Assembly (NCBI GenBank): GCA_900320405.1
Contig: OOHM01000001.1
Location: 203,191 to 267,190 of the forward strand
DNA: 64,000 nt
Direction of reading: 5' to 3'
Origin: an uncultured Pseudomonadota bacterium
GTDB taxonomy: Bacteria > Pseudomonadota > Alphaproteobacteria > Rs-D84
Shown here: positions 1,636 through 64,000 of the stretch, piece after piece
How positions within the stretch are numbered: the first letter of the stretch is position 1
How the letters are laid out: the number at the start of each line of letters is the position of its first letter
Notes under the pieces: model-generated
The model's database searches: none
The model's input: only the letters and a program-made list of their open reading frames with translations
Told to the model about the DNA's origin: nothing
Made by a program: the position numbers and the translations under genes

Positions 1636-2288
1636 GCTTCAGAATTTATATGTGCCAAAGAACTTGTAATCTTGTGCAATTTGTGCAACAACGTTCTGCC
1701 TTCATCACCAAACATCGGCAGATATGTTTCGTAATCTGGCATATCAACTTGAAGTTGTGCACGTGCCCGTTCATTGATTGGTTTGGAAATAATATCGTTT
1801 GCGCTTTCCCAAAGGCTGTACGCCCGCCAAGTGCGAACAATCGTATCAAATTTTTTCAATTCTTCGGGATGATTGTTCAATATGTGTTTTATGGAAACCG
1901 CCCATTCGGGACCAAATCCACGAACAACCGGCATCTGCATAAATTGCTGTAACGCGTCTTGGTCCGGTTCAAAATTATTAATTGCAGATATCAAATCATC
2001 TAAATCGTCGTTTGATATATCGGTCGCGATTGCGGGTTCGTTCATCATACCACCATATGGCAACAATTCACGCGCAATAGAATTCATTGGTGTTTTACCG
2101 TCGCGCAAATTTTTTATATGTTGTACCAACATTTTTCCGGTCGGTAAATCTGCCATTTCGGTCAGAACTTCGTCGGTGGCTTCGTCAACAAAGACACGAT
2201 TTACCGCGCCCCATCCGCCGACGATAACATGCGCCTGACGGTAAAGATTTAACAATTTTTGTGCGATTACACTTGCTTTGGCTTTCAT
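1632..2288 (-). CDS. hypothetical protein (218 aa)
   Basis: Long ORF on the opposite strand within the block that interrupts the terminase. No recognisable motif. Confidence 0.4.
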   Translation of the reverse strand: MKAKASVIAQKLLNLYRQAHVIVGGWGAVNRVFVDEATDEVLTEMADLPTGKMLVQHIKNLRDGKTPMNSIARELLPYGGMMNEPAIATDISNDDLDDLISAINNFEPDQDALQQFMQMPVVRGFGPEWAVSIKHILNNHPEELKKFDTIVRTWRAYSLWESANDIISKPINERARAQLQVDMPDYETYLPMFGDEGRTLLHKLHKITSSLAHINSEA

Positions 2289-9695: not shown

Positions 9696-10349
9696 TTATT
9701 CCCCACCAAACATTACATCTGATACCCGAAACACAAACACAACCGCCGGATCAATTCCCATCTTTAACGCCCGTTGCACCGCATCGATATCGCTTTTCAA
9801 CCGACCGATTGTGCCGGCATCTTCGATTTTTATGTACATTGTGCCACGCGTGACCGTCGGTGGTGTGCCCATATCATTTGGTTTATACCACGTTTTTAAT
9901 TCATAATCAACATGCCAATAATTACTGTTTTCGGGCTTAAAGATTTCGTTAAAAACCCGAACCGTTCGGCGCGCGCCATTTGACGCCAATTCGCGAATTT
10001 CGGGCACAACATTCTGTTCCCATGCGCGCGCAACATTCGCCGCAGACATAATTCTTATATTTGCGGTGTTTCCGCGTGTGCGTCGCGCAACATTTTCAAC
10101 ATCGGGAATTACATAGAAATATTCCATAACAAATTTTTGAATTAACCAATCCCGCATTCTGCGTTCACCAACCTCGGCAAGATTGCGTGGCATACCGGTT
10201 TGATTAACCGCGCTTAACCCCGTGCGAAAGAAATATGGTTCAACCGTCACTTTGTTGCCCGTATCATATATCGCACCTGCGATATAAATCATCGCGAATA
10301 CGGCGAATATGGTCACCAATCCGATAATATATCCAATCAGTCGTTTCAT
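9696..10349 (-). CDS. VirB8-like bitopic membrane protein (T4SS component family), paralog 2
   Basis: N-terminal TM helix followed by VEPYFFRTG (a VirB8 PYxVxVD-like motif). Shares the ARAWE motif with the adjacent paralog. Confidence 0.4.
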   Translation of the reverse strand: MKRLIGYIIGLVTIFAVFAMIYIAGAIYDTGNKVTVEPYFFRTGLSAVNQTGMPRNLAEVGERRMRDWLIQKFVMEYFYVIPDVENVARRTRGNTANIRIMSAANVARAWEQNVVPEIRELASNGARRTVRVFNEIFKPENSNYWHVDYELKTWYKPNDMGTPPTVTRGTMYIKIEDAGTIGRLKSDIDAVQRALKMGIDPAVVFVFRVSDVMFGGE

Positions 10350-29403: not shown

Positions 29404-29612
29404 GAATCGGATGGGAATCCGTTTCGGGGCTGTAGCAGGCTCTTTGAAATACCGGTGCAGCGGCATCGTAATCCAATGGATTTTCATGTCTTTGCACCGC
29501 ATATTACCCCGCGTGGTCGGGGTGCCGATGGTTATATATCGAAGATTATCGGAGTCATTGTATTTCATGATTTGCTAACACCCCGACCGTCAATTCCCAT
29601 TGACGGTTTCTT
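29404..29612 (+). ncRNA. unclassified structured RNA element, copy A (5' GGGA-loop hairpin, conserved core cggggctgt..ggtgcag.ggcatcgtaatcc, two further hairpins, 3' terminator-like hairpin) located just upstream of 29636 gene
   Basis: About 70 percent identical to 61823..62051, with compensatory substitutions in three stems. Ends in accgtcaat/attgacggt followed by Us, 24 nt before the ATG. Confidence 0.6.
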
Positions 29613-29635
29613 ACTAGAGACAAAGAGGGAATATT

Positions 29636-30346
29636 ATGAGCAAAAAATTACTGTTCGCCACAATCGCATCGGTTTTGGCAACCGGCGCATTTGCCGACCC
29701 GAAAACCGTAACAACCCAGGATTATGTTGATAATGAATTGGCACAAAAACAAGCCATAATAACACCAACAAATTATTCTGCAACAATCGGCAATACGACA
29801 TACCCTGTCAAAGGATTAGTATTATACCCAGATGCAAATAATTCTGATGCGTCGGGTGCAATTGGCGCAAATAAGTTGTTTGGACGTGATATGGCTTTTG
29901 CATTGGCGGATTATGCTGATTCAAATCCTAATAACGACGATACAAATACTTATTGGTACAATGAATATTTATGGCCGTTCGCACAAGGAGAGACATGTAG
30001 TGGTAGACTTTGTGATGGTTTTACCCCTGGTTTTGCCAATTATGTTATTACGGGTGCCGCCTTGTTTGAAGGTTTAAATAGGCTTAGAATGTATGTTGAA
30101 GATATGATATATGCGGCAAAACCCACAGGTGATGCAAATACCGTTGCTTTGTATGGAAATGACGGTGAACTTAACACATCACGGGCATTATACGATGGTT
30201 CGGGAACGTATAATGCCGGAACCGATGCCGGAAAAATTGCCACCGCCGCCGCGGTTGAAACCAAACAAAACAAAATGACCTGTACACGGTGGTTGGACAA
30301 TGCCGAACACACCGATGCAAACTGTTTGTTGTGGAGTATAAACTAA
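29636..30346 (+). CDS. secreted protein, paralog family A (236 aa)
   Basis: Signal peptide MSKKLLFATIASVLATGAFA, N-terminal YVDNELAQKQ and C-terminal TCTRWLDNAEHTDANCLLWS, shared with the 8048..8467 protein. Confidence 0.6.
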   Translation: MSKKLLFATIASVLATGAFADPKTVTTQDYVDNELAQKQAIITPTNYSATIGNTTYPVKGLVLYPDANNSDASGAIGANKLFGRDMAFALADYADSNPNNDDTNTYWYNEYLWPFAQGETCSGRLCDGFTPGFANYVITGAALFEGLNRLRMYVEDMIYAAKPTGDANTVALYGNDGELNTSRALYDGSGTYNAGTDAGKIATAAAVETKQNKMTCTRWLDNAEHTDANCLLWSIN

Positions 30347-38318: not shown

Positions 38319-39847
38319 ATGCTGCATACATCAGATTTTGATTTTGAATTGCCACCGGAATTAATCGCGTCGCATCCATTGGAACGACGCGATGCTTCGC
38401 GTATGTTGGTTGTTGACCCAAATGGCATTTGCGAAGTTCCCCTCCTCGGAGGGGTGCCGGGTGAAACCCGGTGGGGTGGGGGTAAAAAAGATATTTGCTT
38501 AAATTTACCTAAAAACCCAAAATTAAAACAACGTGCACGCGAATTGCGCCAGGCCGGCAGTTTACCCGAAGCCTTGCTGTGGAATGAAATAAAAAATAAG
38601 AAGTTAAACGGTCTTGATTTTGATAGACAACATATCATAGGCAATTATATTGTAGATTTCTTCTGCCCGCAAATTGGGTTTGTTATTGAAATAGATGATA
38701 AAACCACACACGACCTTAAAGGTGCGTATGATGAAAAACGTGATAAATATCTTAAATCATTGAACCTTACTGTGATGCATATACCGGCTTCAGATGTGCT
38801 TAAAAATCCGGCATCCGTGGCACAATGGATTTATAATGTTGTTTTTGATACCCCCACCCCGGCGTGCATTGCACGCCACCCCTCCGATAATCACCCAAAA
38901 AATGCTATGCATTTTTCGGGACCCGATGGAGGGGAACTTGTTATTGCCGATAAATATATTCGTGATTTTTTGGACTACCTGAAACCTGGTGATGTGGTGG
39001 TGTTTAACAATTCACGTGTTATTCCCGCGCGCTTTGATGCGGATGGGCACGAAATAACATTACATACCGCGGTGGATGATAAGAATTGGTGGGGGCTGTG
39101 TAAAAAGTTTAACAAAATCAATATTGGCGACACATTGACAATGCGTGATGGCACAACAATTACGGTTGTTGATAAAGATGATGAAAGTGGACTACTGCTG
39201 CGTTTTAATTGCGACAATGTTTTTGATGTGTTGAATCGTGTTGGCAAAATGCCACTGCCACCATATATGAAGCGCGATGCCGAAGTGGCGGACCAAACGC
39301 GTTATCAAACGGTCTATGCCGACCCGTTGGGTTCTATGGCGGCACCAACCGCGGGTTTGCATTTCACCGACGAATTGATGGCGGAAATTGAAAATCGCGG
39401 TGCAAAAATAGTAAAAATTACATTGCATGTTGGCGCGGGAACATGGATGCCGGTTAAAACCGAAAATTTAAACGAACATAAAATGCACAGTGAATGGTGC
39501 TGTATCACACCCGCCCAGGCGGAAATAATAAACAACGCCACGCGTGTCATTGCCGTTGGAACAACATCACTGCGCACGCTGGAAAGTGCCGCCCGAAACG
39601 CCACCGGTGGGGCGCGTGTCGCACCGATTTGCCAAACCACAGATATATTTATCACACCGGGATATAAATTCCGTGTGGTTGATGTGTTGTTAACGAACTT
39701 TCATTTGCCAAAATCTACATTGTTTATGTTGGTGTCGGCATTTTCGGGCCTGGATGAAATGAAGGTCGCATATGCCCACGCCGTTGCGGAAAAATATCGT
39801 TTTTTCAGTTATGGCGATTGTTGTTTGTTATTTAGAAAGGAATCATA

Positions 39848-39848
<1 letters not shown>
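38319..39848 (+). CDS. queA: S-adenosylmethionine:tRNA ribosyltransferase-isomerase QueA carrying an in-frame ~146-aa insertion with a DUF559 endonuclease-like domain
   Basis: N-terminal FDFELPPELIASHP and a C-terminal region collinear with canonical QueA (VFNNSRVIPARF, HVGAGTW, VGTTSLRTLES, TNFHLPKSTL). 509 aa versus about 350 aa for typical QueA. Confidence 0.8.
38448..38886 (+). mobile_element. putative in-frame selfish insertion: DUF559 (Vsr-like endonuclease) cassette bounded by 38-nt GC-rich inverted repeats
   Basis: Left end cggaggggtg-ccgggtgaaacccgg-tggggtgggggta (38448..38485). Right end tacccccacccc-ggcgtgcattgcacgcc-acccctccg (38849..38886), which is the reverse complement apart from a swapped central palindrome. 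The DUF559 motifs ALLWNEI, FDRQH, YIVDFFCP, VIEIDD lie in between. Confidence 0.5.
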
Positions 39849-61509: not shown

Positions 61510-61713
61510 ATGAAAGGATTGACAGATTACGTTCTTGCACCATTAACATTTATTGGCGCAATCAATTGGGGATTGGTCGGCATATTCGGCTTTGATTTGG
61601 TCGCATGGCTGTTTGGTCCCGCCACGATGGTATCTAATATCGTTTATGCAATCATCGGTGTTGCCGCGGTTGTATGGTTGATATTGATGTTCATTGAAAG
61701 ACCGACGCGTTAA
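61510..61713 (+). CDS. DUF378-family small membrane protein
   Basis: 67 aa with two TM helices. LTFIGAINWGLVGIF motif. Confidence 0.6.
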   Translation: MKGLTDYVLAPLTFIGAINWGLVGIFGFDLVAWLFGPATMVSNIVYAIIGVAAVVWLILMFIERPTR

Positions 61714-61757
61714 AGTTCGGGAATCAATGGAAAAAGATTTTTTGCGACCGTTATTTT

Positions 61758-61788
61758 CCGCCGGTTCGCCGGCGGGTTATTTTTTTGT
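61758..61788 (+). terminator. rho-independent terminator
   Basis: ccgccgg-ttcg-ccggcgg then gttattttttt. Confidence 0.6.
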
Positions 61789-61822
61789 TGAATTGTTGTT
61801 CATATTTGATAAAAATAATTCT

Positions 61823-62051
61823 GAATTCAATGGGAATTGAATTCGGGGCTGTGAGAGGCCTTTACAAACCCGGTGCAGGGCATCGTAATCCATCAAGATT
61901 CTTCGTATGTTTTGCATCGCGATAATTCCCCCGACATATTGTCGTCGGGGTGCCGGTGGTTATACAACAGGTTTATCCGAAAACCACCGGAATCACAGGT
62001 TTGTATGATTTCTCAACACCCCGACCGTCAATTTCTGTTGGCGGTTTTTTT
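61823..62051 (+). ncRNA. unclassified structured RNA element, copy B (same family as 29404..29612), free-standing between convergent genes
   Basis: Perfect 9-bp stem gaattcaat/attgaattc with GGGA loop. Conserved core cggggctgtgagaggcc..cccggtgcagggcatcgtaatcc. Stems ccccgac/gtcgggg and ccggtggtt/aaccaccgg. 3' hairpin plus U7. Confidence 0.6.
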
Positions 62052-62110
62052 ATGGTCGATGGTATCCCCATAAATCTCCACCGACCACCTTTTTTTGTTA
62101 TGATTAATTT

Positions 62111-64000
<1,890 letters not shown>

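Follow-up and report, generated by a model that had tools for sequence, protein, structure and literature searches.

Close to the right-hand end of the 64,000-nucleotide (nt) stretch of contig OOHM01000001.1 analyzed here (the window, from an uncultured alphaproteobacterium) lies a strongly structured RNA element, the second of its kind in the window, which we call copy B (61823-62051, plus strand). All of the parts that a preliminary description of this DNA had given for it were found at their coordinates, among them the perfect 9-base-pair (bp) stem with a GGGA loop of hairpin P1 and a 3′ hairpin with a T-run, and the element is indeed a second copy of the full architecture, 72% identical to the first one, copy A. 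Upstream on the same strand is a DUF378 gene (61510..61713; Pfam E-value 1.5e-18) with a terminator of its own, called on the plus strand at 61757-61776 by a terminator scan. Downstream is a convergent gene for a class A penicillin-binding protein (PBP1A; 62111..63898, minus strand), identified by its Transgly and Transpeptidase domain matches, whose stop at 62111 is about 60 nt past the U-run of copy B.

The scan of open reading frames (ORFs) and the position of the PBP1A stop confirmed that copy B stands free between these two genes, with no plus-strand gene behind it. No credible plus-strand ORF, no Shine-Dalgarno (SD) sequence and no conserved ORF was found 3′ of the copy B terminator. The small ORFs in this stretch, a 25-codon ATG frame without an SD sequence and several frames antisense to the penicillin-binding protein gene, are not conserved in the related loci L002 and L004 (L numbers denote the loci compared) and were rejected. 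Copy B therefore lacks an SD sequence and start codon within about 80 nt after the terminator, which makes it a structural member of its family and a positional orphan.

Signals for transcription could be read on either side of the element. At 61788..61816 on the plus strand is a promoter-like site (TTGAAT, 16 nt, TGaTAAAAA(T), as read from the sequence) that ends about 7 nt 5′ of P1, in the same position as the −35 and −10 boxes upstream of most copies of the family. The 3′ end is an intrinsic terminator, T (62023..62051, plus strand), with a 10-bp stem (hairpin 62023-62046), a 4-nt loop and a U-run; it is among the cleanest and strongest in the family and was the only element called downstream of the copy B RNA by the terminator scan. 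Between T and the PBP1A stop lies a second, weaker hairpin followed by ACC and U7 (62054..62097, plus strand; fold −11.4 kcal/mol, z −2.1). It is conserved in L002 and L004, and may be a back-up terminator or a remnant.

A BLAST search of the copy B region against the window returned copy A as a match at about 29387-29612 (72% identity over 249 nt, E-value 8e-26), and profile searches with all filters off found no third copy in the 64 kb, so that the window holds only copies A and B. Both fold far better than dinucleotide shuffles (z −7.3 and −6.3, with none of 200 shuffles as good), and nine base pairs are compensated between them. Copy A (29369..29613, plus strand) consists of a promoter (TTGCCC, 17 nt, TAAAAT; 29369-29397), which was called by a strict consensus scan, and of an RNA that runs from about 29404 to a terminator hairpin with a weaker U-tract (about 29613), which the terminator scan did not call. 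Copy A serves as leader to a gene at 29636..30346 on the plus strand, which encodes a 236-amino-acid signal-peptide protein of unknown function. This gene belongs to a multi-paralogue family restricted to these Alphaproteobacteria, whose homologues are named by NCBI as proteins of Alphaproteobacteria metagenome-assembled genomes (MAGs), and orthologous leader-plus-gene units are present in L031, L034 and L138. A transfer RNA (tRNA) gene lies on the opposite strand about 50 nt upstream of the copy A promoter (29246-29319, minus strand), and one other copy of the RNA, L102, likewise has a tRNA gene directly upstream.

The two window copies belong to a large family. When metagenomes were scanned for two conserved blocks, 95 loci came back, 48 of which held a true full-length relative (nhmmer E-value below 1e-24), and more copies were added from loci reached through neighboring proteins. 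In total the family amounts to 74 hits and 60 distinct sequences, with further copies in L138 and L140; the count of copies is thus two within the 64-kb window and 60 distinct ones across metagenome loci. Copy B matched a profile of 51 relatives, from which copies A, B and the B-type orthologues had been excluded, over its full length (model positions 2-236, nhmmer E-value 5.2e-54), and copy A matched with an E-value of 5.1e-48. The copies differ from one another by about 30%. Two other genomes each carry at least two copies, and one 9-kb contig carries two. The hosts are uncultured Alphaproteobacteria from rumen and gut metagenomes, and their scaffolds of 0.9-1.0 Mb suggest small genomes. Exact protein matches put the window itself on a 916-kb scaffold of a cattle rumen metagenome, and its genes are also present in NCBI MAGs.

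No Rfam 15 family reached threshold on the family copies scanned, and in the window only five tRNAs passed the gathering thresholds. In E-value mode the only Rfam overlap with copy B was a sub-threshold match to sRNA-Xcc1 (RF02221), a small RNA (sRNA) family, and nothing relevant fell on copy A or on 20 other loci, with the exception of L062. Viral contigs gave no pattern match and then a single one (L133), which fails the family profile; a plasmid collection gave no match to copy B; and a scan of GTDB genomes gave 13 pattern matches, only one of which, from red deer, is a true relative (L028). A keyword literature search turned up no earlier description of the family. The family is uncatalogued: its fold, its gene set and its maintained orphan are new, and an attenuating leader and a leader-derived RNA are of a known kind. 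Beside one family copy (L074, 1387-1529) we noted a long palindromic element with sub-threshold matches to RF02625 (Wolbachia sRNA 46) on both strands (45 and 37 bits; cut-off 65).

Covariation was measured on a 55-sequence alignment, A5. The structure described below is paired in 97.3% of the alignment cells, compared to 83.5% in column shuffles, with 347 double-sided changes compared to 109. None of 500 shuffles reached the pairing values of A5, and slid registers were at most 44% paired. Many of the pairs are G-U (one pair of helix M has 40) and would be A-C on the other strand, which shows that the structure is to be read on the plus strand; this is also the strand of the downstream genes.

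In copy B (all elements on the plus strand), the 5′ domain begins with hairpin P1 (61823..61844), whose 9-bp stem GAATTCAAT/ATTGAATTC carries the GGGA loop, a GNRA tetraloop. Across the family P1 is paired in 96.4% of cells, six of its eight pairs show double-sided changes and the loops are GGGA or GAGA. Hairpin Pa follows (61846..61861; 61846-61849 with 61858-61861), with compensation at one pair (C-G 38, U-A 10) and A-U three times at another. The Pa loop (m5, 61852-61857) pairs with 62010-62015 (m3) as helix M, a pseudoknot that is 97.6% paired, with double-sided changes at five of seven pairs and all four Watson-Crick types at one; Pa and M thus form an H-type pseudoknot. Helix I joins i5 (61863..61870) to 61998-62005, and its four scored pairs all covary heavily. 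Hairpin P3 (61871..61919; CGGUGC ... GCAUCG) is 99.1% paired at the stem base and contains the near-invariant GCAUCGUAAUC at 61880-61890, which is conserved in copies that were found independently and whose invariance in the metagenome set is partly due to ascertainment.

The 3′ half contains the switch region, in which hairpin P4 (61929..61952) is made of strands b (CCCCGAC, 61929-61935) and c (GUCGGGGUG, 61944-61952). Next comes hairpin P5 (61953..61990), with a AUACAACA/GAAA internal loop; it resembles hairpin 1 of sRNA-Xcc1, and its four scored pairs all covary. The 3′ strands of helices I and M (61998..62015) consist of i3 (61998-62005), a conserved AUGAUUU linker and m3 (62009-62015). 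Strand d (CACCCCGAC, 62017..62025) can pair with c as an alternative to b:c and shares its last 3 nt with the stem of terminator T. Every structural element of the family, namely P1 with its GNRA loop, Pa and M, I, P3, P5, both pairings of c and the terminator with its U-tract, is present in copy B. Support across the family is strong for P1, M, I, P3, P5 and the stem of the terminator. Two other helices were considered and rejected. The GGGG:CCCC closing helix of the single-sequence minimum-free-energy fold shows no compensation, since all 11 departures from it are mismatches and the variable bases are compensated in Pa. A local hairpin GAAUCA/UGAUUU, the equivalent of hairpin 2 of sRNA-Xcc1, is 89.8% paired and has no double-sided change.

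Strands b, c and d form two mutually exclusive helices, each of which is supported by covariation. Strand c has the consensus GUCGGGG[U/A]G and strand d the consensus C[A/U]CCCCGAC. The local b:c hairpin occurs in every copy, with a stability of −9 to −16 kcal/mol in all but one (−21) and of −13.9 kcal/mol in copy B; a C-G pair is changed to U-A eight times (C-G 36, U-A 8, U-G 7), and an inserted base is also compensated. The c:d helix of 9-10 bp is 97.6% paired, and the copy B duplex has −18.2 kcal/mol. One of its positions is found as U-A 27, A-U 15, G-U 6 and U-G 4 times, and the next pair is compensated in one copy. The GAC(C) of strand d is common to the base of the terminator stem. All 55 copies have a terminator hairpin (mean −11.6 kcal/mol) followed by a U-rich tail, with an average of 5.8 U in 8 nt; when GACC is withheld, the mean falls to −4.5 kcal/mol and the base next to the U-tract is open. 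We also considered c:d as a full antiterminator lying over the 5′ arm of the terminator and rejected it in this form, as the overlap is only 3-4 nt; it was kept as a partial-overlap model. An anti-SD role for b or d, by pairing with the SD sequences rich in G, was rejected as well, because inspection showed no covariation.

The genomic context of the family is that of a leader. Most copies have a sigma70-like −35/−10 pair (CTTGNC, about 17 nt, TGnTAnAAT) that ends about 7 nt 5′ of P1. Sequences upstream of the promoters are unrelated between copies, and similarity extends from approximately the predicted start of transcription as far as the terminator or the SD sequence. After the terminator, most copies continue with 10-30 nt, a G-rich SD sequence and a start codon, the family terminator lying 10-80 nt before the start codon. 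An ORF was found directly downstream in 49 of the 54 copies other than B; the five exceptions have a short or disturbed frame or lie where the contig stops. The orientation is always towards the downstream gene. An intrinsic terminator between promoter and ORF, the layout of an attenuator, is thus what the family has, and copy B has the terminator and no ORF. In most copies a second promoter would not fit between terminator and start codon, which argues that the downstream gene is expressed only by read-through of the terminator. With its own promoter-like site and a gene within about 80 nt, the family behaves as a cis-acting leader and not as a miniature inverted-repeat transposable element (MITE). 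The preliminary description was right that copy B has no gene in cis; it missed that the element is one of some 60 copies of a leader family, nearly all the others of which precede genes, and that it resembles sRNA-Xcc1. We conclude that the family is primarily cis-acting and that copy B is the exception.

About three quarters of the downstream ORFs start with a signal peptide or lipoprotein signal, as judged by a crude hydrophobicity test and inspection, and many are paralogues of the copy A gene. Other downstream genes include those for a GmrSD-type nuclease, an EcoRI-type methyltransferase, a helix-turn-helix (HTH) protein and a GT92 glycosyltransferase. In some ten copies (L034 at about 9930-10000, L086, L121, L068, L101, L042, L048, L064, L076/L049 and L087) an additional hairpin module, rich in GC (UCCCCUCUGGCUAGAGGGGUGGC...GAAAG...), separates the leader terminator from the downstream SD sequence; it may be a second, optional conserved RNA motif. 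In L118 (about 1700-1756, minus strand) the ORF behind the leader copy starts at AUA and gives a good signal peptide only with one A added to an A8 tract; it may have a phase-variable homopolymer or be a pseudogene.

The pairing alternatives and the layout suggest how these leaders might work. Pairing of b with c, together with a full terminator, would stop transcription; pairing of c with d would withhold the base of the terminator, and RNA polymerase would read into the gene. The balance between the two states would be set by some ligand or protein acting on the pseudoknotted 5′ domain. As modeled, the family is most likely a transcription attenuator.

The arrangement around copy B is conserved beyond the window. 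In L004 the intergenic segment that carries it is 97.5% identical and the RNA differs by one substitution; in L002 the segment is 90.5% identical and the RNA 94.3%. In a further relative, L005, only 48 bp lie between the DUF378 and PBP1A genes and the site is empty. Between the window and L002, 216 of the 229 positions of the B RNA are identical (94.3%), compared to 410 of 585 third codon positions of PBP1A (70.1%; p 8e-16), and the RNA is also more conserved than the flanking intergenic DNA (144 of 165, 87%; p 0.018). Four of the 14 substitutions between copy B and its L002 counterpart fall in stems, and all four preserve the pair (A-U to G-U twice, G-U to A-U twice), so that no pair is broken. 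The promoter-like site and the terminator of copy B are kept in three lineages. Copy B is at most 72% (about 70%) identical to the nearest leaders and is no closer to them than they are to each other, which argues against a recent duplication. No other copy in the set is a clear orphan. Taken together, these comparisons support the view that copy B is under purifying selection and selectively maintained.

Just 3′ of the DUF378 stop (61716-61758) we noted weak direct-repeat matches to copy B, one to the P1 region (72% over 25 nt) and one to the start of strand d and the terminator (86% over 14 nt). The profile match of this stretch is at chance level (E-value 0.9), and the stretch is also missing in L005. 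The repeats may be what is left of a copy after an internal deletion, or may have arisen by chance.

The reading that we prefer, with somewhat more confidence than doubt, is that copy B is a selectively maintained orphan of a pseudoknotted 5′-leader family of about 200 nt, released as a free-standing RNA. It would be transcribed from its own predicted promoter and released as an RNA of about 230 nt. Since copy B has no gene to regulate in cis and is nonetheless maintained, an independent RNA acting in trans is the simplest reading; and since it is a complete leader copy, the most economical guess is that it would mimic the leaders, as a decoy or sensor for the same effector that controls them. 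Of the two possibilities offered in the preliminary description, an independent sRNA gene is the more reasonable, given 94.3% identity compared to 70.1% at PBP1A third positions and the intact stems, and a MITE fares poorly, given the lack of terminal inverted repeats and the non-homologous promoters. A more tentative extension, which we consider possible though unlikely, is that the leaders form a new class of effector-sensing attenuators, with an aptamer-like double-pseudoknot domain, a three-strand b/c/d switch and a regulon of surface, lipoprotein and defense genes, that copy B is a gene-less mimic titrating or reporting the effector in trans, and that sRNA-Xcc1 is a truncated relative within the same leader superfamily.

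Several points weigh against these proposals. The promoter of copy B received no call in the strict consensus scan, as the last base of its −10 box is not T. The c:d helix would take only 3-4 nt of the terminator, and its antiterminator role is a model; it also crosses helices M and I, and may be a static tertiary pseudoknot instead of a switch. The 48 aligned metagenome copies were retrieved by a pattern that requires GCATCGTAATC and CCCCGACCG, so that the invariance of both motifs is partly by construction; among copies found independently, GCATCGTAATC is present in six of seven and CCCCGACCG in seven of seven. Copy B is absent from the related genome L005 and is dispensable there. Third positions of the DUF378 gene are identical between the window and L002 at 61 of 68 sites, which does not differ significantly from copy B (p 0.18), and part of the conservation of copy B could come from a locally young or recombined segment. 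Finally, the trans-acting decoy role is one that we purely infer.

Four other explanations were weighed, here in order of their weight. That copy B is a relic, the leader of a deleted gene left intact because the loss was recent or harmless, is an unlikely reading though the weightiest of the four. Essentially all the others are leaders, L005 has an empty site at this locus, the second hairpin with its U7 could be the terminator of the lost gene, and UAUGGUC, with which the sequence behind the copy B terminator begins, recurs at that place in L029, a leader copy. A relic is at odds, however, with a conservation of 94.3% compared to 70% at PBP1A synonymous sites and above that of its own flanks (p 0.018), with pairing kept by all four stem substitutions, and with a promoter-like site and terminator retained in three lineages; nor does an identity of at most 72% to any leader point to a recent duplicate. 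The retention of the complete switch (b, c, d and T) with nothing to switch on could instead mean that copy B senses a signal and controls antisense transcription, read-through running antisense into the 3′ end of the PBP1A gene and lowering its expression. The terminator and the PBP1A stop are only about 60 nt apart, an envelope protein such as PBP1A would fit the gene set of the family, and riboswitch-controlled antisense RNAs are known from Listeria and Clostridium. We nevertheless regard this as improbable, because the terminator of copy B is among the strongest and is followed by a second same-strand hairpin with U7, an arrangement that looks more like insulation than like controlled read-through.

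We give a similarly low probability to membership of copy B, as a diverged member, in sRNA-Xcc1, a family of small RNAs of mobile elements that base-pair in trans. Over its full length the Xcc1 model can be aligned with 61944-62033 (38.3 bits, local E-value 2.6e-5); the copy B closing stem, GUCGGGGUG:CACCCCGAC, hardly differs from that of a true Xcc1 element in L135, GUCGGGAG:CUCCCGAC; copy B and true Xcc1 have in common the UUUCUNAAC junction and the AUACAA/GAA internal loop; and Xcc1 is likewise multi-copy and upstream of accessory genes. Yet this score misses the curated cut-off (53 bits), copy A has no match and only one of 20 further family loci does (L062, 37.9 bits). True Xcc1 loci lack the 120-nt 5′ domain, the strands of Xcc1 hairpin 2 and the junction pair with that domain in the leader family, where the local hairpin has no covariation, and sequence profile matches to true Xcc1 are not significant (E-values 0.24-0.46). 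The last explanation is that copy B is a structured, MITE-like repeat, mobile as DNA, of which some copies end up in 5′ untranslated regions (UTRs). It is largely refuted and very improbable, even though the family has many copies and a patchy distribution (L002 and L004 have the element where the window does, and L005 has none at this site) and the inserted segment is flanked by T-runs. Terminal inverted repeats are lacking; the one candidate, an AT-rich 13-mer, includes the native stop codon of the penicillin-binding protein gene. When the target-site duplication expected of a MITE was looked for by comparison with the empty site of L005, the junctions fell in terminator T-runs, so that none was clear and none can be claimed. 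Similarity between copies starts approximately at the transcription start, behind non-homologous promoters, and copies consistently point to the gene that follows. What is conserved is base pairing in the RNA, with pseudoknots and strand-specific G-U pairs, and a divergence of about 30% between copies is unlike a recent burst.

The closest catalogued RNA is sRNA-Xcc1, which has in common with the 3′ half of copy B a 9-bp G-rich/C-rich closing stem, an AUACAA...GAA hairpin, a second segment, a U-rich junction ending in AAC and a 3′ tail. Four true Xcc1 elements from the plasmid collection (L134-L137) scored 69-73 bits; they have the internal loop and junction of copy B, and in one of them the closing stem is almost identical too. 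In the family at large, the AUACAA/GAA internal loop is absent from many copies; the c:d closing stem and the first hairpin are both present in copy B. The leader family differs in adding a 5′ domain of about 120 nt (P1, Pa and P3) that pairs with the equivalents of Xcc1 hairpin 2 and junction, in ending in an intrinsic terminator directly before a gene, and in occurring in uncultured rumen Alphaproteobacteria, whereas Xcc1 is found in mobile elements of beta-, gamma- and deltaproteobacteria. In fetched examples and the literature, symE, ORF6N/BRO and hypothetical genes lie just downstream of Xcc1, and in the two annotated records among the four the element is about 40-50 nt upstream of a same-strand coding sequence (for a hypothetical protein and a BRO family protein). 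For the four fetched elements as a set, the distance to a gene, where genes are annotated, is about 40-60 nt. Xcc1 thus looks leader-positioned rather than free-standing. The two families may be distant relatives, or may have a common structural module.

Other known systems resemble the leader family in parts. The c-di-GMP class I riboswitch is a transcription-attenuating riboswitch with a multi-gene regulon. Like such riboswitches, the leader family lies in the 5′ UTR, extends from transcription start to terminator, has exclusive helices that share a strand, carries a GNRA tetraloop and pseudoknots, and has many copies per genome before genes for surface or secreted proteins. Unlike them, its gene set, with a nuclease, a methylase, an HTH protein and GT92, does not suggest a metabolite, and its antiterminating overlap is only 3-4 nt. 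Listeria SreA/SreB and Enterococcus EutX are riboswitch- or leader-derived small RNAs that act in trans. In these the terminated leader transcript is a discrete RNA for which a function of its own is possible, and copy B would be the pure form of such an RNA; they are still joined to a regulated operon or include a known riboswitch, whereas copy B has no downstream gene. Rickettsia palindromic elements and MITEs are structured repeats of reduced alphaproteobacterial genomes. The leader family resembles these in being multi-copy, structured, about 200 nt long and patchy between related genomes, and differs in having no inverted termini and no clear target duplications, in not lying within genes, in its promoter-to-gene orientation and in its conserved pseudoknots.

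If the model is true, one RNA fold would govern dozens of variable envelope and defense genes in little-known host-associated Alphaproteobacteria, and the signal that it senses would be a key to their lifestyle. As a large, covariation-rich and pseudoknotted family that is absent from Rfam, the leaders are a candidate for the discovery of a riboswitch or a protein partner, and orphan copy B would be a natural experiment on the life of a leader as a free RNA, be it a decoy or a sensor. The resemblance to sRNA-Xcc1, which is annotated in many pathogens as a trans-acting sRNA, suggests re-examining it as a cis-acting leader.

Elsewhere in the window, between the two copies, we noted a queA gene at about 38319-39848 (18684-20213 in L010) that encodes 509 amino acids, with Pfam domains in the order Queuosine_synth, DUF559, Queuosine_synth. 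Its orthologues in related MAGs have 341-344 amino acids, and the window queA looks like the product of an in-frame insertion of a DUF559 (endonuclease-like) domain.

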